DNA of 32,000 nt from Xylella taiwanensis. Lineage in GTDB: Bacteria; Pseudomonadota; Gammaproteobacteria; Xanthomonadales; Xanthomonadaceae. The position numbers and the translations under genes are program-made. Where the stretch lies: assembly GCF_013177435.1 (NCBI RefSeq), contig NZ_CP053627.1, positions 360,001-392,000 of the forward strand. Direction: 5' to 3'. Below, one piece after another: positions 2,012 to 15,480 of the stretch; position 1 is the stretch's first letter; each line of letters begins with the position of its first letter. Under the pieces are notes generated by a model. That model saw only the letters and a program-made list of their open reading frames with translations, was not told the DNA's origin and ran no database searches.

Positions 2012-4615
2012 ATGTTGGAAGCCTATCGACACCACGTCGCTGAGCGCGCCGCGCTTGGCATTCCACCATTGCCACTGAGTGCGCAGCAGACGGCAGATGT
2101 CATCGAGCTGCTTAAAGTCCCACCGGCGGGTGAAGCAGATTTCCTCCTCGATCTCATCAGCCACCGTGTCCCGGGCGGGGTTGATGATGCTGCTAAAGTT
2201 AAAGCCTCTTACCTGGCGGCGGTTGCCTTTGGCACAGAAGTGACGCCGCTGTTCACGCCACAGCGCGCCACCGAATTATTGGGCACCATGCTGGGGGGAT
2301 ATAACATCCAACCGTTGCTTGACTTGCTCGATCATGCCGAATTGGGTCAGGTGGCGGCTGAAGGGTTGAAGCACACTTTACTGGTGTTCGATGCTTTCCA
2401 TGATGTGCAGGAGAAGGCAGAGCAGGGCAACATCAATGCTCGCGCAGTCCTGGAAAGTTGGGCGGCGGCTGAGTGGTTCACGAGCAGGCCGGAAGTGCCG
2501 CAGCGCCTGACCGTCACCGTGTTCAAAGTCCCTGGTGAAACCAATACCGATGATTTGTCGCCGGCACCGGATGCGACCACCCGCCCGGATATCCCAATGC
2601 ATGCGTTGGCGATGCTGAAGAACAAGCGCGAGGGAGCGCCGTTCGTGCCGGAAGAAGAGGGTAAACGTGGTCCGATTCAGGAGATGTTGTCGTTGAAGCA
2701 GAAGGGACATTTAGTGGCCTATGTCGGTGATGTCGTTGGCACGGGTTCCAGTCGGAAGTCGGCAACTAACTCGGTGCTGTGGTGGACTGGTGAGGACATT
2801 CCGTACATTCCGAACAAACGTTTCGGAGGCGTGTGCTTAGGCTCGAAGATCGCGCCGATCTTCTACAACACCATGGAAGATGCTGGTGCATTGCCGATCG
2901 AGCTGGATGTATCGAAGATGGAACATGGCGACGTGATCGAGTTATATCCCTACGAGGGGCAAGTGCTGAAGAACGGCGTAGTGATTGCTGAATTTGCGTT
3001 GAAATCGGAGGTGTTATTGGACGAGGTGCGTGCTGGTGGTCGTATCCCGCTGATCATTGGCCGTGGCCTGACCTCCAAGGCCCGTGAGGCGTTGCAGTTG
3101 GAACCGACCAGCCTGTTCCGCTTACCGGTCAATCCGCCGGAGACTGGCCGCGGTTTCTCGTTAGCGCAGAAGATGGTGGGCCGCGCCTGTGGCCTTCCCG
3201 AAGTGAATGGCAAGCAGCAGGGGATGCGTCCTGGCACATACTGCGAACCAAACATGACCTCGGTCGGTTCACAGGATACGACCGGCCCTATGACACGTGA
3301 CGAGTTGAAAGATCTGGCGTGCCTGGGGTTCTCAGCTGATTTGGTGATGCAGTCCTTCTGTCACACCGCCGCCTATCCGAAGCCGGTCGATGTAAACACT
3401 CACCACACCTTGCCGGAATTCATCTCCACCCGCGGCGGCATCGCGCTGCGTCCTGGTGATGGCGTGATTCATAGCTGGCTCAATCGCATGCTGTTGCCTG
3501 ATACCGTCGGTACTGGCGGTGATTCACATACACGTTTCCCGATTGGGCTCTCGTTTCCTGCTGGTTCTGGTCTGGTTGCTTTCGCGGCAGCCACCGGCGT
3601 GATGCCGCTGGATATGCCCGAATCAGTACTGGTGCGCTTCAAAGGGCAGATGCAACCGGGTGTGACGCTACGTGATCTGGTCAACGCGATTCCCTTATAC
3701 GCCATCAAACAAGGCTTATTGACTGTGGCGAAACAGGGCAAGAAGAACATTTTCTCTGGGCGTATTCTCGAAATCGAAGGGTTGCCCAATTTGAAGGTGG
3801 AACAGGCCTTCGAATTGTCTGATGCCTCGGCAGAACGTTCGGCAGCGGGTTGCACCGTCCGTTTGAATAAGGAACCGATCATCGAGTATCTCAATAGCAA
3901 TATCACGTTGCTCAAATGGATGATTGCCCAAGGTTATGCCGATGCGCGTTCCTTGGCGCGCCGCATGAAGAAGATGGAAGCATGGTTGGCTGATCCGCAA
4001 TTGATCGAACCGGATACCGATGCTGAGTACGCCGCGATCATCGAGATCGACCTGGCTGAAATTCATGAGCCTATTGTGGCTTGCCCGAATGATCCGGACG
4101 ATGTGAAAACCTTGTCCGATGTCGCAGGTGCGAACATTGACGAGGTCTTTATCGGCTCATGCATGACTAACATTGGTCACTTCCGGGCAGCGGCTAAACT
4201 GTTGGAAGGTCAGCGTGATATCCCAACCCGGCTGTGGGTTGCTCCACCCACCAAAATGGACGCCTCGGAGCTGACCAAGGAAGGCCACTACGGCACCTTT
4301 GGTAATGCTGGCGCGCGTATGGAGATGCCCGGGTGTTCACTGTGCATGGGCAATCAGGCGCAAGCGCGTGAGGGTGCCACTGTATTCTCGACCTCGACGC
4401 GTAACTTCCCGAATCGCTTGGGTCGGAATACCAATGTTTATCTCGGTTCTGCAGAATTGGCGGCGATCTGCTCACGCCTGGGCAAAATTCCGACCAAGGA
4501 AGAATACATGGCGGACATCGGTGTGATCGACACTAAGCGTGCGGAAATATACCGCTACATGAACTTCGATCAGATCCAAGATTATCGAGATGTGGACCAG
4601 ACTGTGGCGGTGTGA
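2012..4615 (+). CDS. acnB: Aconitate hydratase B / 2-methylisocitrate dehydratase (AcnB)
   Basis: In ORF 1979..4615 the internal ATG at 2012 gives [22 protein letters not shown]..., collinear with E. coli AcnB over the whole length. Matching stretches include [112 protein letters not shown] and [20 protein letters not shown] precedes 2012. Length is 867 aa. Confidence 0.97.
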
Positions 4616-4673: not shown

Positions 4674-5264
4674 GCGTGTTAGGCAAGTGCTGCACAAGCC
4701 TTACGACGCTCTTGTTATCCATCGTCATGGTTTGATGGACAGCGGCTCAGGTTTTTTTTCGGAGAGAGCAAATATCGATTGGTGTTGTGATCGAGGCAGC
4801 GCACATCGAATGCTTGCGATGTGTTGATTGTGAATTTTTCTGGTGTTTAGCGATGTTGACTGACTTAAGAATCTGCACGACTGAATAACGCAACTGACGA
4901 CTTGTCTACCTGGTTGTTCTGGCGGGTGCTCACCAACATCTACTGCAACCTGGGATGCATCGGCTACGGCAGTGACTTCATGAAGAACACGATGCACGTG
5001 AATGCGATTGACCTCATTGAGTCAGTGCATGGTTGCAAGTCCTCAGCCTTATCGTGCACAAGTCGAGCAGTGCATGACACAAAAAAATGCAGGCGCACGT
5101 GTTCCTATTGTTGCCTCTATGCTCCCGCGTCAGCGCCTGCATTGAGTGTTTGTCTCTGCACCAGTGTGTTGGCGGCTATGTCATCGTGGGTATCACAAGA
5201 CTTGCTCCTTGTAGGTCTGGGTCGGTATAGTCGCCCTCCTTACAGCGCAGCTGTGCTTGGTAAG

Positions 5265-5340
5265 GGCCGGGTAGCTCAGTTGGTAGAGCAGGGGACTGAA
5301 AATCCCCGTGTCGGGGGTTCGATTCCCTCCCCGGCCACCA
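5265..5340 (+). tRNA. tRNA-Phe (anticodon GAA)
   Basis: A 76-nt sequence, GGCCGGGTAGCTCAGTTGGTAGAGCAGGGGACTGAAAATCCCCGTGTCGGGGGTTCGATTCCCTCCCCGGCCACCA. The acceptor stem is GGCCGGG/CCCGGCC, the anticodon loop is CUGAAAA, the T-loop is GTTCGATTCC, and CCA is encoded. It is near-identical in layout to E. coli tRNA-Phe. Confidence 0.97.
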
Positions 5341-5423
5341 ATATCAAAAGGTCAACCGTGTGCTGTTGGCCTTTTTTCTTGCCCGATCGCGCCGATTCCC
5401 GCGTGTTGTTGGGGGGTGCTGCG
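5335..5423 (+). repeat. Left copy of an imperfect direct repeat (att-like), overlapping the last 6 nt of tRNA-Phe and its terminator
   Basis: By hand alignment, 5335-5423 (ccaccaatatcaaaaggtcaaccgtgtgctgttggccttttttcttgcccgatcgcgccgattcccgcgtgttgttggggggtgctgcg) matches 15395-15480 with about 6 mismatches and 3 gap positions, roughly 90 percent identity. Confidence 0.85.
5348..5377 (+). terminator. Rho-independent terminator downstream of tRNA-Phe
   Basis: Stem ggtcaac (5350-5356) / gttggcc (5365-5371) with one G-U pair and an 8-nt loop, followed by T6 (5372-5377). Confidence 0.7.
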
Positions 5424-5560
5424 TAAGCCTGCGGACTTCGGCAACCACCTTCTGTTGCGAGGTGGACGGTAGCCATGTGACCAACACATCCCCTACAGCA
5501 CATACTCCAAAGAGCGCAACAGGCAGTACATTGGCCGCACCCCATCGACAAGACGCCACC

Positions 5561-5791
5561 ATGTCACGCCTGAAAGCCGAAACCCTGTCCATTCGCACCT
5601 CCGTCGAGATCAAACACCTGTTGCGCTTGGCCGCAGCACATGAACGCCGCTCGGTCGCCTCCATCGTCGAAATCCTCGTACTGAAATACGCCCAGCAATA
5701 CGACTTACACACCGCACCCCATCCATCCATGCCCCCGCCACAGCGACCGCTGCATCACGAGGCACTCCCCACTGACACCCGCATCCTCTGA
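5561..5791 (+). CDS. Small ribbon-helix-helix (CopG/Arc/DUF1778-like) DNA-binding protein
   Basis: The internal ATG at 5561 of ORF 5360..5791 gives MSRLKAETLSIRTSVEIKHLLRLAAAHERRSVASIVEILVLKYAQQ. This is a beta-strand (LSIR), helix, helix pattern typical of RHH antitoxin/repressor domains, followed by a Pro-rich tail. It lies 65 nt upstream of hsdM on the same strand. Confidence 0.5.
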   Translation: MSRLKAETLSIRTSVEIKHLLRLAAAHERRSVASIVEILVLKYAQQYDLHTAPHPSMPPPQRPLHHEALPTDTRIL

Positions 5792-5856
5792 CACACGCAG
5801 CAGCCAAACGGCTACCACACCGCCTGCGCCTTGCTCCTCGCCCCTGAAGCCACCGC

Positions 5857-7617
5857 ATGAACCCCATCGAACAACAGTTTCTCAACGACTTCGAAAAAAA
5901 ACTCTGGACCGCTGCCGACAAACTGCGCTCCTCCCTGGATGCTTCCGTCTATAAACACGTCGTCCTGGGCTTGATCTTTTTGAAATACGTCTCCGATGCC
6001 TTTGAAGAACGGCAGCAAACACTACGCCAGCAATTCCAAAACCCCGAACATGACTACTACATGGACCCTGACGCCTACGGCGGCGCAGGCACACCAGAGT
6101 ACGAACAAAACCTGGCCGCGGAACTGGAGGTCCGTGACTACTACATCGCGAAAAACGTCTTCTGGGTGCCCATTGAGGCCCGCTGGCACACCTTGCGCAA
6201 TTTCGCCCCATTGCCCCCTGGCAGCGAACTGCCGTGGACAGTGCCCAAGCGCGACAGCGATGGCCGCTACGTGCACAACGCAGCCGGTGAACGCGTCATG
6301 GAGCCGGACAAAATGCGCACCGTCGGCTGGCTGATCGACAACGCCATGGAGGCTGTTGAACGCGAGAACGTCAAACTCAAAAACGTGCTCAACAAAGACT
6401 TCGCCCGCACCCAGATCGACAGCCACAAACTGGCCGACCTGATCGTCCACTTCTCCGACACCTACTTCAGCCAACCCACCTACCGCGGCCACACACTGGA
6501 CCTGAAGAGCAACGACATCCTCGGCCACGTCTACGAATACTTCCTCGGCCAATTCGCCCTCGCCGAAGGCAAAAAGGGTGGCCAGTACTACACCCCCAAG
6601 AGCATCGTCACCCTAATCGTGGACATGTTGCAGCCCTTCAAAGGCCGCGTGTACGACCCCGCGATGGGCTCGGGCGGCTTCTTCGTGCAGAGCGAACACT
6701 TCATCACCCAGCACAGCGGCAAAATCACCAACCCCAAAACCGGCCAGATCAGCATTTACGGCCAAGAGAGCAACCCCACCACCTGGAAACTGGCCGCCAT
6801 GAACATGGCCATCCGCGGCCTGGACTTCAACTTCGGCAAGCACCCCGGCGACACCCTGCTGAACGACTTACACCCCGACCTACGCGCCGACTACGTCATG
6901 TCCAACCCCCCCTTCAACATGAAGGAATGGTGGAGCGAGAAACTGGATAACGATCCACGCTGGATCGCCGGCAAACCGCCACACAGCAATGCCAATTTTG
7001 CCTGGCTGCAACACATGCTCTACCACCTGGCCCCCACCGGCAGCATGGCACTGCTGCTCGCCAATGGTTCCATGAGCAGCAATACCAACAACGAAGGTGA
7101 AATCCGCAAGCAACTGGTCGAACACGATCACGTCGAATGCATGGTGGCCCTGCCCGGCCAACTGTTCACCAACACCCAGATTCCCGCCTGCATCTGGTTC
7201 CTCACCAAAGACAAAGCCAACGGCTTCAACCTCGATAAGAAAAAACGCAACCGGCGCGGCCAGTACTTATTTATTGATGCCCGCTCACTGGGCTACATGA
7301 AAGATCGTGTCCTGCGTGACTTCACCCTGGACGACATCAACAAGATCGCCACCACCTTCCACGCCTGGCAACAGGGCACGAATTACGCCGACGTCCCCGG
7401 TTTCTGCTACGCCGCCACACTGGACGACATCCGCAAACACGGCCATGTGCTGACGCCAGGTCGCTATGTGGGTGCAGCGGCACAAGAAGACGACGGAGAA
7501 CCCTTTGCCGACAAAATGGCGCGCTTGACAGCGCAGTTAGCGGAACAGTTTGCTGAGAGTGCCAAGCTGGAGGGGGAGATCAAGAAGAACTTGGCGGGGT
7601 TGGGGTATGGCGTTTGA
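5857..7617 (+). CDS. hsdM: Type I restriction-modification system, DNA methyltransferase subunit M (N6-adenine)
   Basis: The 586-aa ORF has an HsdM N-terminal domain (LWTAADKLRSSLDASVYKHVVLGLIFLKYVSDAFEE). The AdoMet motif is VYDPAMGSGGFFV (about 6652-6690). The catalytic motif NPPF is at 6904-6915 (SNPPFNMKEW). The C-terminal helical tail is ARLTAQLAEQFAESAKLEGEIKKNL. Confidence 0.95.
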   Translation: MNPIEQQFLNDFEKKLWTAADKLRSSLDASVYKHVVLGLIFLKYVSDAFEERQQTLRQQFQNPEHDYYMDPDAYGGAGTPEYEQNLAAELEVRDYYIAKNVFWVPIEARWHTLRNFAPLPPGSELPWTVPKRDSDGRYVHNAAGERVMEPDKMRTVGWLIDNAMEAVERENVKLKNVLNKDFARTQIDSHKLADLIVHFSDTYFSQPTYRGHTLDLKSNDILGHVYEYFLGQFALAEGKKGGQYYTPKSIVTLIVDMLQPFKGRVYDPAMGSGGFFVQSEHFITQHSGKITNPKTGQISIYGQESNPTTWKLAAMNMAIRGLDFNFGKHPGDTLLNDLHPDLRADYVMSNPPFNMKEWWSEKLDNDPRWIAGKPPHSNANFAWLQHMLYHLAPTGSMALLLANGSMSSNTNNEGEIRKQLVEHDHVECMVALPGQLFTNTQIPACIWFLTKDKANGFNLDKKKRNRRGQYLFIDARSLGYMKDRVLRDFTLDDINKIATTFHAWQQGTNYADVPGFCYAATLDDIRKHGHVLTPGRYVGAAAQEDDGEPFADKMARLTAQLAEQFAESAKLEGEIKKNLAGLGYGV

Positions 7618-8980
7618 TTGGAATGCAGCCATTGTCGGTGACTTCGTTGATCTGCAACGTGGAAATACTTACCAAAGCGCACTTCTGGATACACCTGGCC
7701 CAGTACTTCTTGGCCTCGCATCCATTGAGTGCGATGGCGGATTTAGACCAGACAAGCTCCGAACCTATGGAGGCGAAAGTCCAGCCAGGCTCCTAATATA
7801 CCCAGGAGACATCTACGTTTCCTTGAAGGATGTTACCCAGTCGGGGGACCTTCTGGGCTCGGTAGCTCGTGTTCCAAATTTCATCACTGTTGGAAGATTG
7901 ACTCAAGATACAGTGAGGCTTGTATTCAAAAACGAGATGATTGATCGCTCATATCTATATTGGATTTTGAGGACCCCTGAATACAGGGATTATTGCCGAG
8001 CACGCGGCATGGGAACTACGAACCTATCGCTAAGTCGAAGCGATTTTCTTTCCTTTACTGTTCCCGAGCCAACATCTAATCGCCTCTCCATTCAGCGCAC
8101 ACTGGATGCTATTGAATGCAAGATCACGTTGAATCGAGATATTTGTCAAACCCTCGAAGCCATGGCGCAAGCGATCTTCACATCGTGGTTTGTCGATTTC
8201 GACCCGGTCAAAGCCAAAATCGCCGCTATTCAAGAGGGCCGTGACCCGCTGTGTGCTGCCATGAGTGCCATCAGCGGCAAGGGTGACGCCACCCTCGACG
8301 CGCTGCCGCCCGAACAATACAAACAACTCGCCGCCACTGCCGCGCTGTTCCCTGATGCGATGGAAGCAGCGGCGTTGGGGGAGATTCCGAAGGGGTGGAT
8401 GCTCAAGTCCCTCGGTGATGTTGCGCAATTTGCGAACGGGAAAGTTGATGTTGCCTCTCTGAATGAAGGGATCTACGTTTCCACCGAAAACATGCTTAAT
8501 GATAGAGCAGGCATCACTCGCGCAACCTCACTTCCTTCCACAGCGACCGTGCCGAGCTTTACTAAAGGCCAAGTTCTCGTTTCGAATATTCGGCCTTACT
8601 TCAAGAAGATTTGGTTGGCACGCTTTAATGGCGGAAGATCTCCCGATGTATTGGCTTTTGCGCCGGTAGATCTCCGATGGTCTGAGTTTCTGTATAGCTT
8701 GATGTACCAAGATGCATTTTTTGAGTTCATAACACGCACAGCCAAGGGCGCTAAGATGCCTCGCGGAGATAAGGATGCAATCATCGGCTGGAAGTTTCCT
8801 TGTCCTGACGAACGACTAATAGTGCATTTTTCAGAAAAATCCAGACCATGCTATGAGCACATTGAGCACTTAACTTCAGAGAATCAAGCGCTGCTAGTAC
8901 TCCGCGACACCCTGCTCCCCAAACTCCTCTCCGGTGAGTTGCCTGTGACGGCCCTTGTGGACGCCGCGGGAGCTGGATGA
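7607..8980 (+). CDS. hsdS: Type I restriction-modification system, specificity subunit S (two target-recognition domains)
   Basis: The ATG at 7607 (MAFDWNAAIVGDFVDLQRGNTYQS) overlaps the hsdM end by 11 nt. There are two variable TRDs separated by a central conserved region (AIFTSWFVDFDPVKAKIAA...) and a C-terminal conserved region (LRDTLLPKLLSGEL). Length is 457 aa. Confidence 0.92.
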   Translation: MAFDWNAAIVGDFVDLQRGNTYQSALLDTPGPVLLGLASIECDGGFRPDKLRTYGGESPARLLIYPGDIYVSLKDVTQSGDLLGSVARVPNFITVGRLTQDTVRLVFKNEMIDRSYLYWILRTPEYRDYCRARGMGTTNLSLSRSDFLSFTVPEPTSNRLSIQRTLDAIECKITLNRDICQTLEAMAQAIFTSWFVDFDPVKAKIAAIQEGRDPLCAAMSAISGKGDATLDALPPEQYKQLAATAALFPDAMEAAALGEIPKGWMLKSLGDVAQFANGKVDVASLNEGIYVSTENMLNDRAGITRATSLPSTATVPSFTKGQVLVSNIRPYFKKIWLARFNGGRSPDVLAFAPVDLRWSEFLYSLMYQDAFFEFITRTAKGAKMPRGDKDAIIGWKFPCPDERLIVHFSEKSRPCYEHIEHLTSENQALLVLRDTLLPKLLSGELPVTALVDAAGAG

Positions 8981-10002
8981 TGGATATCAAGGCGCTGCGC
9001 GACAACACGTTGATCGTGGACAAGGTCGAAGAAGCGTTGCAGGCGGCGTACTCATCGAATGAAGCATTCAACGCAGTTCTGGATGAAGCGCCGCCACTAT
9101 CTTTCAAGAGCCTGCGTGACCCGGAACACGAGTATTTCGTGAAGGTCAGTGAAGCGCTGTACTGGGTGGAGCGAGAGACCTACCTGGATGAGCTGAGACA
9201 CTGGGAAGAACAGCGCGAAATCAACCAACACCAGGCGGCCATCACCTGCATCACCTCCTCTGATCAGCGCGGCGTCTTCTCTGATCTGGTGAATGCGATG
9301 CGCCTGAGGCGGATCGCGCCGTTCGTGGGCGCGGGGCTCTCCAAAGCCTGTGGTGACACGATGTGGGGCGAGGCGCTGCGCAACATCGCCCCAAAGCTCG
9401 ATGGTTTGGAGGTACAGGACATCCAGGACATTGAGCCCCTGATGGCGCGATACGACGATCTGCAAGCCGCGCAGGTCTTACATGATGCCGCCGCCGAGCA
9501 TGTCACACATTTCATCAAAACCGAGTTTCGCCAACGCGGTGCGATTGTCGGGCCTGTTCGCTTGCTCACCGAGCTTGCCAACGGCTGCATCGTCACTACC
9601 AATGTCGATACGGTCATTGAAGATCTGTTTCGTGAACGGGGGCAGCCGCTGGATGGCTACATGCATGGCACTCAGGCGGGCCATAACTTCGTGCAGCGGT
9701 TGTTGCGTGGCGAACGTTGCATCCTCAAGCGGCACGGCGACGCGGGACAGGACAACACCCATGTGTTCACCCAGGCGCAATACCAGGCCGCGTATGGCGA
9801 ACCCTTCGCCTTCCAGAACCAGCTCCCCCGTGCGCTGCGGCAGATCTTCATCAGCCATTCGCTACTTTTCTTGGGATGCAGCATGGAGCAAGACAAAACG
9901 CTCGATTTGTTCAAGCACGTGGTAGATGAAGCAGCCTTTGAAATTCCGGATCACTTTGCCCTGTTGAATGAACCGGCCACGGCGGCAGAACGTGTCCTCT
10001 AA
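8977..10002 (+). CDS. SIR2-like (SIR2_2 family) domain protein, putative NAD+-consuming defence effector, embedded in the Type I RM operon; possibly truncated by a frameshift at its 3' end
   Basis: The start ATG 8977 overlaps the hsdS stop (ATGA at 8977-8980). Motifs: PFVGAGLS (GAG at 9328-9336), IVTTNVD (Asn codon at 9601-9603), ILKRHGD (His codon at 9733-9735) and LLFLGCSMEQD. These match the Rossmann/NAD-pocket and catalytic Asn/His signature of prokaryotic SIR2_2 defence domains. The first ~105 aa form a helical region that I do not recognise. Confidence 0.75.
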   Translation: MMDIKALRDNTLIVDKVEEALQAAYSSNEAFNAVLDEAPPLSFKSLRDPEHEYFVKVSEALYWVERETYLDELRHWEEQREINQHQAAITCITSSDQRGVFSDLVNAMRLRRIAPFVGAGLSKACGDTMWGEALRNIAPKLDGLEVQDIQDIEPLMARYDDLQAAQVLHDAAAEHVTHFIKTEFRQRGAIVGPVRLLTELANGCIVTTNVDTVIEDLFRERGQPLDGYMHGTQAGHNFVQRLLRGERCILKRHGDAGQDNTHVFTQAQYQAAYGEPFAFQNQLPRALRQIFISHSLLFLGCSMEQDKTLDLFKHVVDEAAFEIPDHFALLNEPATAAERVL

Positions 10003-10453
10003 GGAAGCCCGGCTATTGAAACTGAACATCCGGCCGTTATGGTACGCAACGCCTGTCAACACCGATGGCACACCGGATCACTGCTTGCTGGAACAGCTCC
10101 TGAGATACGCCATCGCGGTCGCGGACTGCCCACCGGGGCGCTTCATTCCTTATATCCAGCTGCATGAATTTGAGGCGCTGCTGTTTAGCGATGTATCGAT
10201 CCTGACGCGCATTGCATCAGGCTGGCTATCGGCACACGTTGCACTGGCAGCCATATGTGCCGCTGTTGAATCCCCTGAACAGATCAACGGCCTGCCCGAA
10301 ACCAAGCCCGCCGCGCATCTGGAACGCGCCTTGAGCCATCCCAAGTACCGCAAACGCACCCATGCCCCCAGTGCCGCACAGAAGATCGGATTGGCCAAGA
10401 TCGAAGCCAAGTGCGCCTTCTTTGCTGGGGGGCTGGCACACATCAGGAAATGA
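9968..10453 (+). pseudogene. Chimeric remnant ORF: the +1-frame continuation of the SIR2 gene tail fused to the C-terminal half of a DUF4276-like protein
   Basis: This frame is +1 relative to the SIR2 ORF and overlaps it by 35 nt. Residues SKEARLLKLNIRPLWYATP...LLEQLL read like the usual C-terminal tail of SIR2_2 proteins. From about 10139, the stretch RFIPYIQLHEFEALLFSD...SPEQINGLPETKPAAHLERAL..YRKRTHAPSAAQKIGLAKIEAKCAFF matches my recollection of the C-terminal half of DUF4276 proteins. The Toprim-like N-terminal half is absent. The stop overlaps the hsdR start (ATGA at 10450-10453). Confidence 0.5.
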
Positions 10454-13400
10454 GCACTGCCATGCTGACCGAACACACCCTCGAAGCACACTGCCTTCAT
10501 TGGTTCCAGGACACGGGATGGCACGTCGCCTACGGCCCTGACATTGGGCCAGACAGTAGTGCCCCTGAACGCACGGATTACCGCCAGGTGATCCTGCGCG
10601 AGCGCCTCTTGGCCGCCCTGGCACGGATCAACACTCACATCCCGGCGACAGCCTTGGAGGACGCCGTACATGCGCTGCACACGATCAGCGAGCCGCAGAT
10701 GGTGATGCGCAACCGCAGCGTGCACCGCCTCTTGCTCAACGGCATGCCCGTAGAGTGTGTCGTAGGCGACGAGAAGAAAACCGACTGGGTGCAGTTCATC
10801 GACTTTCAGCACCCCAGCAACAACGACTTTCTGGCGGTGAACCAGTTCACCATCATCGGTCACCAGCAACTGCGCCGGCCCGATGTGATCGCCTTTGTGA
10901 ACGGCCTGCCGCTGGCGGTGGTGGAGCTGAAAAACCCTGCCAATGAGCACACAGACATCTGGGATGCCTTCAACCAATTGCAGACCTACAAAGATGAAAT
11001 CAGCGACCTGTTCAATAGCAACGTCGCCCTGGTGATCAGCGATGGTTGGACGGCCCGTGTGGGATCGCTGACCGCGGATACCGAACGCATGCTGCCTTGG
11101 CGCACCATCGACCACGAAAACGACCGGCCGCGCCTACAGATGGAATTGGAAACAGTGGTGCGGGGCTTTTTCAAGCCCGAGTTGTTTCTCGACTATGTGC
11201 GGCACTGTGTGCTGTTTGAACAGAATGACGTCGGCATCATCAAAAAGATTGCGGGCTACCACCAGTTCCATGCCGCGCGCGAAGCAGTACGTGCCACCGT
11301 GATGGCCGCACAACAGGCGGACAAGCGCTTGCTGGAAGTGCGGGAAGCACCCGCCGGCTATGGCAAGGACGTCACACCCGGCTCACGCAAGGCAGGCGTG
11401 GTGTGGCATACCCAGGGCTCGGGCAAAAGCATCACCATGGCTTGCTATGCAGGCAAGTTGCTGCAACAGCCGGATATGAAGAACCCCACGTTGGTGGTCG
11501 TGACGGATCGCACCGATCTGGACAGCCAGTTATTCGCCACCTTTAGCGCCGCCAGTGATCTGTTCAAGACCACTCCGGTTCGAGCCGAAAACCGCCAAGA
11601 GCTGCGCGCGCTGTTGGCCTCTCGCGAAGCGGGCGGCATCATCTTCACCACGGTGCAAAAATTCGCGCTGCTGGAGGGGGAAGATGTTCACCCGCTGCTC
11701 TCTGATCGCGCCAACATTGTGGTGATATCCGACGAGGCCCATCGCAGCCAGTACGGCACCAAAGGGACACTGCACCCCACCACCGGCAAGTACATGTTTG
11801 GTTATGCCAAGCACCTGCGAGATGCGTTGCAGAACGCGACCTTCATCGGTTTCACCGCCACACCGATTGCACAGGAAGACAAAGACACCCGCACCGTGTT
11901 TGGTGACTACATCAGCATTTACGACATCCAAGATGCGGTGGACGATGGTGCCACCGTGTCCCTCTTCTACGAGAGCCGCCTCGCCAAGCTTGACGTGAAC
12001 CAGGCCGAGATTGATGCACTCAACGCGCAGGTTGATGAACTCTTCGAGGAGGAAGAGGACATCGCCAGCCGTGAGAAAACCAAAAGCGAATGGGCCGCGC
12101 TGGAGAAGCTCGTGGGTTCAGCGCCCCGAGTGCACCAGGTAGCGCGTGACCTGATCCAACACTTCGAAGCACGTGTTGCGGTGATGGACGGCAAGGCCAT
12201 GATCGTGTGCATGAGCCGCGATATCTGCGTGCAGCTCTACAACGCCATCTGTATCGGCGACGCGCACACCCCGCCGCTGCGGCCTGAGTGGCATAGCCCC
12301 GATCCGAAGCAAGGGGCCATCAAAATCGTGATGACGGGATCAACCACCGACAAGGCGCTGTTGAAGCCGCATCTGTACAGCACACCGGTAAAAAAACGGC
12401 TAGAAGAACGCTTCAAAGACGTGAAAGACCCGCTGAAGCTGGTGATCGTGCGCGACATGTGGTTGACGGGATTCGATGTGCCGTGCTGCCACACCATGTA
12501 CATCGACAAGCCCATGAAGGGACACACCCTGCTGCAGGCTATTGCCCGCGTTAACCGCGTTTTCAAAAATAAACCGGGCGGTCTAGTCGTCGATTACATC
12601 GGCATTGCCAAGGAACTCAAGGTGGCGCTCAAGACGTACACCGCTGCGAACGGCAAAGGCGACCCCACCCACAATGCCGCTGAAGCAATGGCCGTGCTAC
12701 GGGAGAAGCTGGACATCGTACGCGGCATGATGCACGGCTTTGATTACAGCGCATTCGAGACGCAGGCCCTCCCGTTACTGGTGCCTGCCGCCAATCACCT
12801 CCTGGGACTGCAGGACGGTAAGGCACGCTTCCTCGACACCATGGCCGCCATATCCAAGGCGTTCGCGCTGTGCGGCACGCTGGACGAAGCCGCTGCGTTG
12901 CGTAAGGAAATCGCTTTTTTCTCGGCCATCAAGGCGGCCATCGTGAAGTTCACGACCGTGGACAAGAAGCGCCGTGACGCGGAGAAGAACAGCGCACTCA
13001 AGCAGATTCTGGACAACGCCATCATTGCGGATGGTGTGGCGGACGTGTTCGCCCTGGCGGGGTTGGACACACCCAACATCCAGGTGCTGTCGGATGAGTT
13101 TCTGGAAGACGTGCGCCAGATGAAAAGCCGCCATGTTGCCGTGGAACTGCTGGAAAAGCTGTTGCGCGATGCGATCAAAGCGCGCGCCTCTCACAACATC
13201 GTGCAGGAGAAAAAGTACGGTGACAGGCTGCTGGAGGCCCTGCGCAAGTACCACAACCGCGCGATTGAAACTGCCCAGGTCATCGAAGCGCTGATCCAGA
13301 TGGCCAAGGAATTTCAGGCCACCCTGGAACGGGAAGCCACACTGGGCCTCACCCACGACGAAATCGCGTTCTATGACGCGCTCGCCAACAACGAAAGCGC

Positions 13401-13632
13401 GGTGCGTGAGTTGGGCGATGAGGTGCTCAAGAAGATCGCCATCGAGATCACCGAGAAACTGCGCGCCAGCACCACGGTGGATTGGCAGGTACGTGAGAGT
13501 GTACGTGCCAAATTGCGCATCCTCGTGCGGCGATGTTTGCAGAAGTGGAAGTACCCACCTGATCAGCAACCGAACGCGGTAGAGCTGGTGCTGCAGCAGG
13601 CAGAAGAACTCTCCAATCATTGGACGGTGTGA
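10450..13632 (+). CDS. hsdR: Type I restriction enzyme, endonuclease/translocase subunit R
   Basis: The ATG at 10450 lies within ORF 10411..13632. The N-terminal nuclease motif is RPDVIAFVNGLPLAVVELKNP (PD-(D/E)xK). Helicase motif I is HTQGSGKS (11410-11430) and the DEAH box is VVISDEAHRSQYG (11731-11742). Other helicase motifs are FIGFTATP and QAIARVNR. The C-terminal DUF3387-like tail is AFYDALANNESAVRELGDEVLKKIA...VDWQVRESVRAKLRILVRRCL. Length is about 1060 aa. Confidence 0.95.
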   Translation: MSTAMLTEHTLEAHCLHWFQDTGWHVAYGPDIGPDSSAPERTDYRQVILRERLLAALARINTHIPATALEDAVHALHTISEPQMVMRNRSVHRLLLNGMPVECVVGDEKKTDWVQFIDFQHPSNNDFLAVNQFTIIGHQQLRRPDVIAFVNGLPLAVVELKNPANEHTDIWDAFNQLQTYKDEISDLFNSNVALVISDGWTARVGSLTADTERMLPWRTIDHENDRPRLQMELETVVRGFFKPELFLDYVRHCVLFEQNDVGIIKKIAGYHQFHAAREAVRATVMAAQQADKRLLEVREAPAGYGKDVTPGSRKAGVVWHTQGSGKSITMACYAGKLLQQPDMKNPTLVVVTDRTDLDSQLFATFSAASDLFKTTPVRAENRQELRALLASREAGGIIFTTVQKFALLEGEDVHPLLSDRANIVVISDEAHRSQYGTKGTLHPTTGKYMFGYAKHLRDALQNATFIGFTATPIAQEDKDTRTVFGDYISIYDIQDAVDDGATVSLFYESRLAKLDVNQAEIDALNAQVDELFEEEEDIASREKTKSEWAALEKLVGSAPRVHQVARDLIQHFEARVAVMDGKAMIVCMSRDICVQLYNAICIGDAHTPPLRPEWHSPDPKQGAIKIVMTGSTTDKALLKPHLYSTPVKKRLEERFKDVKDPLKLVIVRDMWLTGFDVPCCHTMYIDKPMKGHTLLQAIARVNRVFKNKPGGLVVDYIGIAKELKVALKTYTAANGKGDPTHNAAEAMAVLREKLDIVRGMMHGFDYSAFETQALPLLVPAANHLLGLQDGKARFLDTMAAISKAFALCGTLDEAAALRKEIAFFSAIKAAIVKFTTVDKKRRDAEKNSALKQILDNAIIADGVADVFALAGLDTPNIQVLSDEFLEDVRQMKSRHVAVELLEKLLRDAIKARASHNIVQEKKYGDRLLEALRKYHNRAIETAQVIEALIQMAKEFQATLEREATLGLTHDEIAFYDALANNESAVRELGDEVLKKIAIEITEKLRASTTVDWQVRESVRAKLRILVRRCLQKWKYPPDQQPNAVELVLQQAEELSNHWTV

Positions 13633-13651
13633 AGGTTGCCAAGAGCAACCT
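13633..13651 (+). terminator. Short hairpin immediately after the hsdR stop (weak terminator candidate)
   Basis: aggttgc (13633-13639) / gcaacct (13645-13651), 7-bp perfect stem, 5-nt loop, no U-tract. A second 6-bp hairpin lies at 13661-13678. Confidence 0.25.
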
Positions 13652-13685
13652 AGATGCAAGAATCACTCAGTGGTGATTGCGATAA

Positions 13686-14678
13686 AGAACAGTGCTCGAG
13701 AAGGGCCGTGTTGCTCGTATGGTGGGCCACGTGGTCTGAGGCGTCCATGTGGTCGGCATACAGGTTTTCAGCTTTGCTGTTGGGCCCAATGACCTGGATC
13801 TTTTCCCAGAGATTGAGGTGAGCCCGGGCGCGCGCCATGCCTTCGAAACCACGCCCAGCGGTGTGCTTGTTGGTGCGCAGTTGATGCAGCGCGGCGGTTG
13901 GAAGGTGGGGCAGCGCTTGCCGCTGCAAGCGGCCCGCTTCCCCGACAAGACCGGCAGCATGAACTGGGCCTGCGATATCGTGGGTGTGCTGCATGCGCAG
14001 GACACAAGGAGCGGCGGCTTCTGCGACCGATTGCTGCTGCCATGGAAGACGTTTGATGACACCACGCCCTACAACCGCGGTCAGGTGGGTTGGTATGTCG
14101 TCGAGGTGAAAGACGTCAACGAGGCCGACCGTGTGGCACAGCGCATAGACGCGCTATCGAGCAATTCCGACGATGAAACGCGCCCGCAAAGCGAGCACGC
14201 CGCCATCGCCCATTGGATCACGCCGTTCGTGGACGTCGGCCTCATGGTGGGATCGGTCATGGGCGCGGTGTTCTTTACGCTCATGCTGCTCTCAGGCAAC
14301 ACCATGATGCAGGCAGGACGCGAGCGCACCGGTGAGCTGGAGGTACTCAAGACCTTGGGCTTTTCCAACAGCACCGTGCTGCTGCTGGTGCTGGCCGAGT
14401 CGGTGTTCCTGCTGTTGCTTGGTGGTGTGATCGATCTCTTGGTGGCGAGTGTTCTCATTCCTGCGATTGCGGCGGGCAGCGGCGGCATGCTCAATCTGCC
14501 TGCTTGGGGTGCAGGTAACGGGTTGCTCGGCTGCGGACGGCTGCTCAGCAGCGGTGCGTTGGTGGGCGTGGTGCCCGCTTGGAGCGCTATGCGCCTCAAC
14601 AGCGTCGCTGTGTTGCGGCGCTGCATGACATCGCACCATGTGGATGGCTCTCTTACTTGGACTGCTGGTACTGGCTAG
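13686..14678 (+). pseudogene. FtsX/MacB-type ABC transporter permease, 5'-truncated with an in-frame stop (decayed)
   Basis: ORF 13749..14678 encodes a MacB-like periplasmic core (GVLVGAQLMQRGGWKVGQRLPL...WACDIVGVL...VVEVKD...ADRVAQRIDAL) plus an FtsX domain (ERTGELEVLKTLGFSNSTVLLLVLAESVFLLLLGG...VPAWSAMRLNSVAVLRR). The same frame continues upstream to 13686 across a TGA at 13737-13739. The N-terminal transmembrane helix and start are missing. The reading frame begins about 50 nt after hsdR. Confidence 0.7.
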
Positions 14679-14782: not shown

Positions 14783-15289
14783 ATGTGGGGCTTGCGTACT
14801 TTGCAACAGCGCTGGGGCGCTTCTGCCGTGATCGGTATTGCCGGCGTGGCGGGGGTGCTGCTTGCCTTGCTCGCGATGGGGGAAGGTGATGGGCGGACAC
14901 TGCGCCAGTCCGGCAGCGCGGACACCGCCATCGTGCTGTGGGGTGCTGCGTTGTCAGAGGTGAATGCAGTGCTCGACAACGACAGCTTGGTGCAGATTGA
15001 GCAGGCATCGCCGATCGCGCGTGACACGCGTGACGAGCCGCTGGCGTCGTCGGAGATCGTGGTGGCCGCCCATCTGCTGCTGGGCGGCGCACAGATCGAG
15101 GACGCAGCAGGTAGCGTGCAATTCCGCGGTGTGAGCGATTAGGCCTTTCTGCTGCGCCCACATCTGAAGCTCATCAGCGGACGGAGATTCCAGCCGGGCT
15201 TGCGTGAGCTGATGGTCGGCACAGGTGCTGCTCGACTGTTCGCAGGTCTCGTACCGGGACGCAAGGTCAAGCTGGTAGGCCATAGGTGA
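14783..15289 (+). pseudogene. Second FtsX/MacB-type permease, N-terminal fragment with an in-frame amber codon and 3' truncation
   Basis: MWGLRTLQQRWGASAVIGIAGVAGVLLALLAMGEG...DTAIVL...IEQASPIARD...VQFRGVSD matches the TM1 plus periplasmic-domain start of MacB-type permeases. There is a TAG at 15140-15142. The same frame then continues with family-typical sequence, AFLLRPHLKLISGRRFQPGLRELMVGTGAARLFAGLVPGRKVKLVGH, and ends at TGA 15287-15289. The rest of the gene, including the FtsX domain, is absent. Confidence 0.65.
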
Positions 15290-15394: not shown

Positions 15395-15480
15395 CCACCC
15401 ATACCAAAAGGTCAACAGTGCGCTGTTGGCTTTTTTCTTGCCCGATCGCGCCGATTCCGGCGTGTTGTTGAGGGGCTGCG
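15395..15480 (+). repeat. Right copy of the direct repeat (att-like), including a second copy of the tRNA-Phe terminator hairpin (15408-15436)
   Basis: ccacccataccaaaaggtcaacagtgcgctgttggcttttttcttgcccgatcgcgccgattccggcgtgttgttgaggggctgcg aligns to 5335-5423. No intact tRNA precedes it. Confidence 0.85.

Follow-up and report, generated by a model that had tools for sequence, protein, structure and literature searches.

Does a Type I restriction-modification (RM) operon of Xylella taiwanensis carry, between its specificity and restriction genes, a second defense module built on a SIR2 domain, or the remains of one? The question is raised by a 32,000-nucleotide (nt) stretch of X. taiwanensis DNA (contig NZ_CP053627.1, positions 360,001 to 392,000, forward strand), referred to here as the window and numbered from its first letter. 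In it, five consecutive open reading frames (ORFs) on the plus strand, namely hsdM, hsdS, a SIR2_2 gene, a 161-codon ORF, and hsdR, are joined by overlaps. Two scenarios may explain this arrangement. The five ORFs could form a composite system for restriction and depletion of nicotinamide adenine dinucleotide (NAD), as a sequence-only reading of the window had proposed. Alternatively, the hsd operon may have been acquired horizontally from a SIR2-carrying lineage, and its embedded SIR2/DUF4276 cargo may have decayed in X. taiwanensis, leaving hsdMSR. Our results make the second scenario probable.

A frameshift interrupts the SIR2 gene

The SIR2 gene had been taken for an intact member of the operon, yet it is frameshifted and ~45 residues short. 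Its product has 341 amino acids (aa), compared with 385 to 390 aa in homologues at 72 to 84% identity. Members of the SIR2 family are either 385 to 392 or 339 to 346 aa long, and all homologues carry a C-terminal tail that has no counterpart in the window ORF. In the protein alignment, the window sequence stops at EPATAAERVL, and all other sequences run on with RARKEDRLLQLKIRPLWYATPADADGKPDHSLLEQILKLAIAVARRQVVFE. An alignment of the DNA with five homologues places one extra nucleotide in the window gene, which the aligner puts at T10000, the exact base being ambiguous within CTCT (near 9997 to 10000). This 1-nt insertion generates the TAA stop at 10000 to 10002 that ends the SIR2 frame at codon 341.

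The displaced 3′ end of the gene, KEARLLKLNIRPLWYATPVNTDGTPDHCLLEQLLRYAIAVA, can be read in the +1 frame only, where it forms residues 12 to 52 of the 161-codon ORF. Residues 1 to 52 of that ORF match the SIR2 3′ ends of all loci in the first of two SIR2 clades (clade A; tblastn). The overlap of the two ORFs at 9968 to 10002 is a product of the insertion and not a gene junction. The identical 341-aa product, with the same neighbors, is found in 19 X. taiwanensis contigs from 19 assemblies; therefore, the lesion is real and fixed in the sampled strains rather than a sequencing error.

The adjacent ORF is a deletion chimera

The sequence-only reading had described the 161-codon ORF as a remnant sharing ATGA with hsdR. 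The overlap is present as described, but the composite make-up of the ORF, a SIR2 tail joined to part of a DUF4276 gene, had been missed. The ORF covers just positions 90 to 185 of the 192 in the Pfam DUF4276 profile, and its residues 49 to 161 (113 aa) are 69% identical by BLASTP to residues 122 to 234 of an intact 236-aa protein from a Sterolibacterium metagenome-assembled genome (locus L016). SIR2 homology continues in the +1 frame to ~10123 and gives way, across a four-residue ambiguous stretch (IAVA), to homology with DUF4276; the junction lies near 10112 to 10125. In L016, SIR2 is followed by an ATP-binding cassette (ABC) ATPase of the AAA_21 family (388 aa), the 236-aa DUF4276 protein, and hsdR. 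The window lacks the N-terminal ~121 codons of DUF4276 and the partner ABC ATPase gene. It therefore does not hold a HEC-01 system with both components at full length: the ATPase is absent, and DUF4276 is partial. To judge from these alignments, the 161-codon ORF is a deletion chimera of the SIR2 tail and the C-terminal half of DUF4276, not a gene.

The simplest history begins with an L016-like ancestor and involves two lesions. Given an L016-like layout, a deletion of ~1.6 kb took out the ATPase gene together with the final 7 or 8 codons of SIR2 and the N-terminal ~121 codons of DUF4276. This event fused the 3′ end of SIR2 to the middle of the DUF4276/TOPRIM gene and destroyed a HEC-01-type module. 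The other lesion is the 1-nt insertion that frameshifted SIR2.

The lost tail is conserved across the family

A second SIR2 clade (clade B; alphaproteobacteria, 339 to 346 aa, 26 to 31% identical to the window) has a shorter N terminus and keeps the tail. In an alignment of 41 sequences from both clades, L342, P349, Y352, and L367 are invariant, and R335 and I347 are nearly so (numbering of P0004, a full-length homologue). The AlphaFold2 model of P0004 (mean pLDDT, the predicted score in the local distance difference test, 84; predicted template modeling score, 0.80) shows the tail as a helix at 332 to 344, a strand at 347 to 352, and a helix at 365 to 378, with a pLDDT of 84 to 95 in this block. 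Of these elements, each conserved in the family, the window product has only half of one helix and neither the strand nor the terminal helix, and its SIR2 domain is incomplete once the conserved C-terminal strand and helix are counted in. The tail lies beyond the point where profile alignments to ThsA stop, and these do not place it within the canonical SIR2 fold. From conservation and predicted secondary structure, we infer that the window product is misfolded or inactive.

We also compared private substitutions at otherwise invariant columns. These amount to 4.2% in SIR2, 4.1% in HsdR, and 1.8% in HsdM of the window, against 0.65 to 1.0% in other loci. In HsdR, 39 such substitutions fall at columns that are invariant in 14 relatives (4.1% versus ~0.7%). 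Either fast evolution is a general trait of Xylella, or constraint is relaxed on the entire system. Since all three genes are elevated in Xylella, the comparison does not discriminate for relaxed constraint specific to SIR2.

The embedded protein is of the SIR2_2 defense type

The SIR2_2 assignment in the sequence-only reading was borne out by a significant hidden Markov model match: PF13289 aligns to residues 204 to 335 of the window ORF (score, 85 bits; cut-off, 24.5). Among solved structures, ThsA (6.7e-14 to 8.8e-20), DSR2, KomC, and FAM118B come closest in sequence. A Foldseek search with the P0004 model likewise gave ThsA (9.6e-14; template modeling [TM] score of ~0.53, query-normalized), DSR2, and KomC as top matches, and the SIR2 domains of DSR2 reached a TM-score of up to 0.75 (target-normalized). 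Residues G117, A118, G119, S121, N205, and H249 of P0004 (GAGxS, Asn, His) are invariant in the 41 sequences. N205 and H249 correspond to N209 and H253 of the window, rightly picked out before as key residues, and the window keeps both together with GAGxS. On sequence and modeled fold, members of the family are thus bona fide SIR2_2 proteins of the defense-NADase type.

The family has an N-terminal helical region of ~55 to 95 residues. Its identity is 0.79, versus 0.85 for the core, among close members and 0.34 versus 0.48 among distant ones; it is not hypervariable. No SLOG domain, large sensor, HerA, or TIR partner was found in the family. NCBIfam has no specific model for it, the sole match being a weak one to Avs5 (E value, 2.4e-4), and PADLOC has no dedicated model either: its best match is to part of ThsA, and PDC-S25 reaches just 1.4e-4. 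A profile search gathered 1157 cluster representatives (50% identity) at an E value of ≤1e-30; among the best 150 of these, ~100 are full-length proteins of 340 to 400 aa.

SIR2 homologues reside in Type I RM operons

To determine where members of this family are encoded, we surveyed 37 other bacterial loci, comprising 23 species-representative genomes, 3 plasmids, 6 further proteins, and 5 distant cluster representatives. The 23 genomes, found by a protein pattern, belong to beta-, gamma-, and alphaproteobacteria and Bacteroidota, and their SIR2 is 38 to 81% identical to that of the window (tblastn). In every one of the 37 loci, SIR2 belongs to a Type I RM operon whose HsdR has the same architecture, and in 36 it lies between hsdS and hsdR. 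The enrichment in hsd loci anticipated for the homologues was thus found.

Wherever the upstream flank is present, the 23 genomes show the order hsdM-hsdS-SIR2-(0 to 2.3 kb)-hsdR; three contigs are truncated, and there SIR2 is still upstream of hsdR. The order hsdM-hsdS-SIR2-hsdR also holds for the plasmids of Photobacterium damselae (pPHDD1), Vibrio maritimus, and Ketogulonicigenium vulgare (28% identity), for the six further proteins, which represent both clades, and for four of the five distant representatives of 50%-identity clusters (profile E values of 1e-99 to 1e-65). The linkage between SIR2 and hsd therefore extends to 26 to 31% identity. In the fifth, locus L050, SIR2 (2092 to 3195) is directly upstream of hsdM, with the two genes sharing 8 nt at the hsdM start; the hsdS-hsdR slot of this operon holds a 118-aa ORF.

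Weaker partial matches (25 to 30% identity, <80% coverage) are longer SIR2 proteins, and three of the four examined sit beside TIR genes, as in Thoeris. No SIR2 homologue was detected in phage genomes (tblastn) or in Escherichia coli genomes (blastn, distant mode).

SIR2 diverges with HsdM and HsdR and shares the slot with other cargo

SIR2 becomes less similar to the window protein in step with HsdM and HsdR. Identities to the window are 69 to 81% for SIR2, 76 to 86% for HsdM, and 73 to 86% for HsdR in close loci; 38 to 42%, 59 to 61%, and 60 to 61% in a middle tier; and 26 to 31%, 45 to 49%, and 44 to 48% in clade B. Across all loci, the pairwise identities of SIR2 correlate with those of HsdR and of HsdM at a Mantel r of 0.98 each; among close loci, the values are 0.88 and 0.69, respectively. 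The correlation with HsdS is much lower (0.2 to 0.6), as expected from the swapping of target-recognition domains.

An obligatory SIR2 subunit of this hsd lineage was considered and rejected, since close operons hold other cargo in the slot. HsdR proteins 60 to 69% identical to that of the window occur on plasmids whose hsdS-hsdR slot is taken by other genes (L037 to L040): a BstXI-family endonuclease in Proteus pR997, DUF4268 in Klebsiella unnamed2, and HrgA in Vibrio rotiferianus pAM7. In Shewanella ANA-3, the slot is a ~950-nt gap with a degraded, stop-interrupted, unannotated ORF that has no SIR2 match and looks HrgA-like by eye only. SIR2-bearing and SIR2-lacking systems interleave in neighbor-joining trees of HsdR, and the HsdR of Photobacterium (with SIR2) is 89% identical to that of Shewanella ANA-3 (without SIR2).

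A second cargo lies between SIR2 and hsdR in 13 of the 23 genome loci. In nine loci it consists of SLFN_AlbA_2 plus HATPase_c_4 proteins of 469 or 668 to 672 aa (L001, L003, L010, L015, L017, L018, and L019, at ~11160 to 12570; L002 and L023), in two it is Abi_2 (L004 and L007), and in L016 it is the AAA_21 and DUF4276 pair. Given these varied occupants, the hsdS-hsdR junction is a cargo site, of which SIR2 is, as the comparison of loci suggests, a long-lived but replaceable occupant. Some operons stack three defense modules. Locus L008 has an AAA_21 ABC ATPase followed by a 180-aa protein without a Pfam match (11324 to 12903), in the same slot as the L016 pair; the two may be an undescribed ATPase-partner pair.

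Weighing the alternative explanations

The SIR2 frame is shifted, its tail is lost, and the neighboring ORF is chimeric; it is therefore unlikely that X. taiwanensis has an active composite system, and the proposal that the five ORFs together restrict DNA and deplete NAD is not supported for the window. In the scenario that we favor, the hsd lineage would normally bear a ThsA/DSR2-type SIR2 of 340 to 390 residues as a co-transcribed and translationally coupled operon member. Any activity that the window operon may have would most likely be that of an ordinary Type I RM system with two dead embedded modules, and its start/stop overlaps would be an inheritance from the ancestral operon. Several points weigh against this scenario. 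The truncated ORF retains all recognizable catalytic motifs and its coupling to hsdS, and its excess of private substitutions is no larger than that of HsdR, which points to a recent lesion or to some remaining constraint. Moreover, we argue for the importance of the tail from conservation and predicted secondary structure, and for NADase activity and a link to restriction from homology and synteny. These points would fit an active 341-aa protein in a working five-ORF composite, with GAGxS, N209, and H253 retained, an identical ORF in 19 assemblies, the ATGA/TGATG coupling to hsdS intact, and no SIR2-specific excess of private substitutions. Yet such a protein would have to do without a strand and a helix that are conserved down to 26 to 31% identity, its stop codon is due to a 1-nt insertion, and the chimeric neighbor points to a general decay of the cargo region, so we hold this reading to be unlikely. 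It is extremely improbable that a programmed +1 slip at CUC-UAA-G yields a fusion of SIR2, its tail, and the C-terminal part of DUF4276 of ~490 residues. The +1 frame does run without a stop from the tail across the DUF4276 part to hsdR, and the lesion is fixed in 19 assemblies. However, no homologue is so arranged, all being one uninterrupted ORF with its own stop, and the DUF4276 part lacks its N-terminal half. CUC-UAA does not count among the known +1 slippery sites (compare CUU-UGA of prfB).

For the intact relatives, homology and synteny suggest that SIR2 is most likely a second-line, NAD+-depleting abortive-infection effector alongside the restriction enzyme. As to its control, one possibility, which we put forward tentatively and regard as rather unlikely, is a PrrC-like guard that is inactive on HsdM2S/HsdR2M2S and released as an NADase when Ocr/ArdA-type proteins disable the complex. 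SIR2 would then be held by the small N-terminal domain or by the conserved C-terminal tail, and another insult could also release it. Such coupling is favored by the exclusive hsd context, by the co-divergence, by the variant that sits upstream of hsdM, and by the fact that no sensor domain is present, and the near-identical hsd backbones with other cargo in the slot weaken it. The latter observation fits a real, if minority, possibility: that SIR2 is autonomous cargo that senses phages by itself, does not depend on HsdMSR, and uses the slot for co-mobilization or co-expression only. The BstXI-family nuclease, DUF4268, or HrgA in the slot of the same lineage, the interleaving of SIR2-bearing and SIR2-lacking HsdR (with the Photobacterium and Shewanella ANA-3 pair at 89%), and the further cargo after SIR2 in 13 of 23 loci are as this reading would have it, and embedded TgvAB and DarTG2 work alone (PMC11411939, PMC12255303). 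Against it, SIR2 was outside the hsd operon in none of the 37 loci, one SIR2 is upstream of hsdM and not in the slot, the co-divergence with HsdM and HsdR is deep, no large sensor domain is present, and the N-terminal region is not hypervariable. Finally, SIR2 could regulate the restriction complex by deacylation or ADP-ribosylation (e.g., in restriction alleviation or HsdR control) rather than act as a suicide effector. Strict operon membership with translational coupling and the NCBI name "NAD-dependent protein deacylase" agree with this idea, and a mono-ADP-ribosylating role for RM-linked Sir2 has been considered (PMC3506569). We find it very unlikely nonetheless, as the closest structures and profiles are ThsA, DSR2, and KomC, not deacylases of the CobB/Sir2Tm type, and the hsd systems of this lineage do not need SIR2 to function, judging by intact operons that lack it.

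RM-embedded effectors are a current route to new defense systems, and PrrC is the only one whose coupling to its RM enzyme is understood. The SIR2 family is sizeable, with more than 100 full-length clusters at 50% identity that fit its profile, compact (a single gene of 340 to 390 codons), and confined to one Type I RM lineage in the loci examined; it is therefore a clean system for asking whether an NADase guards a restriction enzyme. If the guard reading were true, the hsd lineage would be a four-subunit immune complex that restricts DNA and is able to trigger abortive infection. The intact relatives are good experimental material. The X. taiwanensis locus alone is of moderate interest, as a decaying island; the proper annotation of its SIR2 and DUF4276 ORFs is as pseudogene fragments, and they should not be counted as defense systems.

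Operon layout and genomic setting

The coordinates and start/stop overlaps of the five ORFs as first described are all present in the sequence, and the domain identities of HsdM, HsdS, SIR2, and HsdR were confirmed by Pfam and PADLOC profiles (Table 1). HsdM is 76 to 86% identical to HsdM of SIR2-bearing loci. The Specificity_I match of HsdS spans residues 1 to 450 and profile positions 1 to 438 of 446 (PADLOC), and HsdS has no Pfam match at an E value of <0.01. The HsdR translation shows a Walker A motif (GSGKS), DEAH, and a D...ExK nuclease motif. The overlap of hsdM with hsdS is 11 nt, hsdS and the SIR2 ORF share ATGA at 8977 to 8980, so that the SIR2 start may be at either 8977 or 8980, and the 161-codon ORF and hsdR share ATGA at 10450 to 10453. 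Similar junctions occur elsewhere: five annotated plasmid homologues have the 11-nt hsdM/hsdS overlap, 16 of 21 complete loci have TGATG where hsdS meets SIR2, and SIR2 overlaps hsdR by 4 nt in minimal operons. The tight junctions are thus not due to chance. Predicted promoters and terminators across 5200 to 14200 are at chance level.

Table 1. Features of the hsd locus and its surroundings (window positions)
Feature	Position	Strand	Evidence
tRNA-Phe (GAA); 3′ end opens the left repeat copy	5265-5340	+	ARAGORN, alignment
Left copy of ~80-nt direct repeat, made up of the final 6 nt of tRNA-Phe and the sequence downstream of it; putative island boundary	5335-5416		Repeat search, 88-96% identical
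hsdM, full-length Type I methyltransferase subunit (586 aa)	5857-7617	+	Pfam N6_Mtase 1.8e-107, HsdM_N 1.4e-20; PADLOC MTase_I 3.6e-180
hsdS, specificity subunit, 457 aa from ATG at 7607, full length	7607-8980	+	PADLOC Specificity_I 1.9e-92
SIR2_2 gene, 5′ 341 codons	8977-10002	+	Pfam SIR2_2 (PF13289) 6.3e-24; PADLOC ThsA, SIR2 part, 1.5e-21
161-codon ("remnant") ORF	9968-10453	+	DUF4276 match; PADLOC HEC-01B 1e-29
Frameshift site, one extra nucleotide versus five homologues	9990-10000	+	DNA alignment
Displaced SIR2 3′ tail, readable in +1 frame only	10001-10123	+	31/41 residues identical to P0004
3′ half of DUF4276 (HEC-01B, TOPRIM-like) gene, in-frame fusion to SIR2 tail by deletion	10112-10453	+	Pfam, PADLOC, BLASTP
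hsdR, 1060 aa from ATG at 10450, full length	10450-13632	+	Pfam HSDR_N, SWI2_SNF2, T1R_D3-like, T1RH-like_C; TIGR00348 1e-176
Right copy of ~80-nt direct repeat; putative right boundary of ~10-kb island	15395-15475		Repeat search, alignment

The operon lies in a ~10-kb segment that is bracketed by the direct repeat and has a GC content of 0.58, versus ~0.55 in the flanks. No integrase is present inside the segment, and several homologous hsd operons adjoin integrase genes. The repeats, the GC shift, and the integrase-adjacent homologues fit a fossil integrative island, which is what this segment looks like from its sequence. Downstream of hsdR, the ORF at 13749 to 14678 has weak partial matches to FtsX and MacB_PCD, consistent with a fragment of an ABC-transporter permease, and the ORF at 14783 to 15142 has no Pfam match and is permease-like by eye only; both lie within the island and are probably pseudogenes. 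Just upstream of hsdM, the ORF at 5558 to 5791 weakly matches a ribbon-helix-helix profile (TacA1-like; E value, 0.008). We discarded it as a conserved upstream regulator of the operon, the match being weak and such an ORF being absent upstream of hsdM in other loci. Elsewhere in the window, at ~1320 to 1962, a MazE-antitoxin/PIN-toxin pair lies between two aconitase genes (precomputed Pfam annotation of an identical X. taiwanensis contig, L044, with an offset of 1024).

Comparison with known systems

ThsA, DSR2, and KomC are NAD+-consuming defense effectors. The SIR2 family shares with them the SIR2_2 fold and the invariant GAGxS, Asn, and His, and they are its best matches in both sequence and structure; it differs in its N-terminal helical region of ~55 to 95 residues and its obligate hsd context. 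Unlike Thoeris, it has no SLOG or Macro domain, and the PADLOC ThsA match spans just model positions 5 to 226 of 478. None of the five operon products matches TIR, and the TIR-adjacent weaker relatives are separate proteins. With 339 to 392 aa, family members are far shorter than DSR1 and DSR2 (~1000 residues or more): the Dsr1 match (5.9e-07) covers the SIR2 part only, and the ~700-residue sensor region of DSR2 is missing. The KomA and KomB partners of Kongming KomC are absent, and, in contrast to SIR2-HerA, no HerA occurs in the window operon or in the surveyed loci with listed Pfam families.

HEC-01, a pair of an ABC ATPase and a DUF4276/TOPRIM protein, resembles the locus in that 10112 to 10453 matches HEC-01B and an intact pair occupies the same position in L016. 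The window, however, keeps only the C-terminal half of the B component and has no A component. HEC-01 itself gave no protection in published assays (Payne et al. 2024, bioRxiv 10.1101/2024.01.29.577857). TgvAB of Vibrio cholerae (Vibrio pathogenicity island 2) and DarTG2 of enteropathogenic E. coli occupy the same hsdS-hsdR slot, which supports the idea of a cargo site, although they are unrelated in protein and mechanism and act independently of restriction (PMC11411939, PMC12255303). The junction has also been described as a cargo site for PrrC, TgvAB, and DarTG2 and in a "guilt-by-embedding" survey.

The closest parallel in gene arrangement is PrrC of EcoprrI (and RloC), a single-gene, suicide-type effector in the hsdS-hsdR slot that is co-transcribed with hsd. 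PrrC is found almost exclusively between hsdS and hsdR (Payne et al. 2024), and the SIR2 gene, likewise lodged within the hsd operon, is largely confined to that setting (37 of 37 loci). PrrC combines an ABC ATPase with a HEPN anticodon nuclease, whereas only a SIR2_2 domain was found here. Latency on the Hsd complex and an anti-restriction trigger are traits of PrrC, to which SIR2 is likened by its gene arrangement.

In Payne et al. (2024), SIR2 is named neither in the main text nor in 11 supplementary files, and the only account that we found in the literature of SIR2 in Type I RM is a 2012 mention, with no experimental description. The sequence-only reading knew of no experimentally characterized system of this kind; the association itself, however, is not new: Makarova, Anantharaman, Aravind, and Koonin noted Sir2 enzymes "linked to Type I RM systems" (2012, Biol Direct 7:40, PMC3506569). 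Their observation concerns the same genomic association, with Sir2 as a toxin-like domain coupled to innate immunity. It consists of a brief mention and a figure that treat Sir2 as a possible nuclease or ADP-ribosyltransferase, and differs from ours in offering no family definition, survey numbers, or experiment. The window locus is a degraded member of this known but uncharacterized association.

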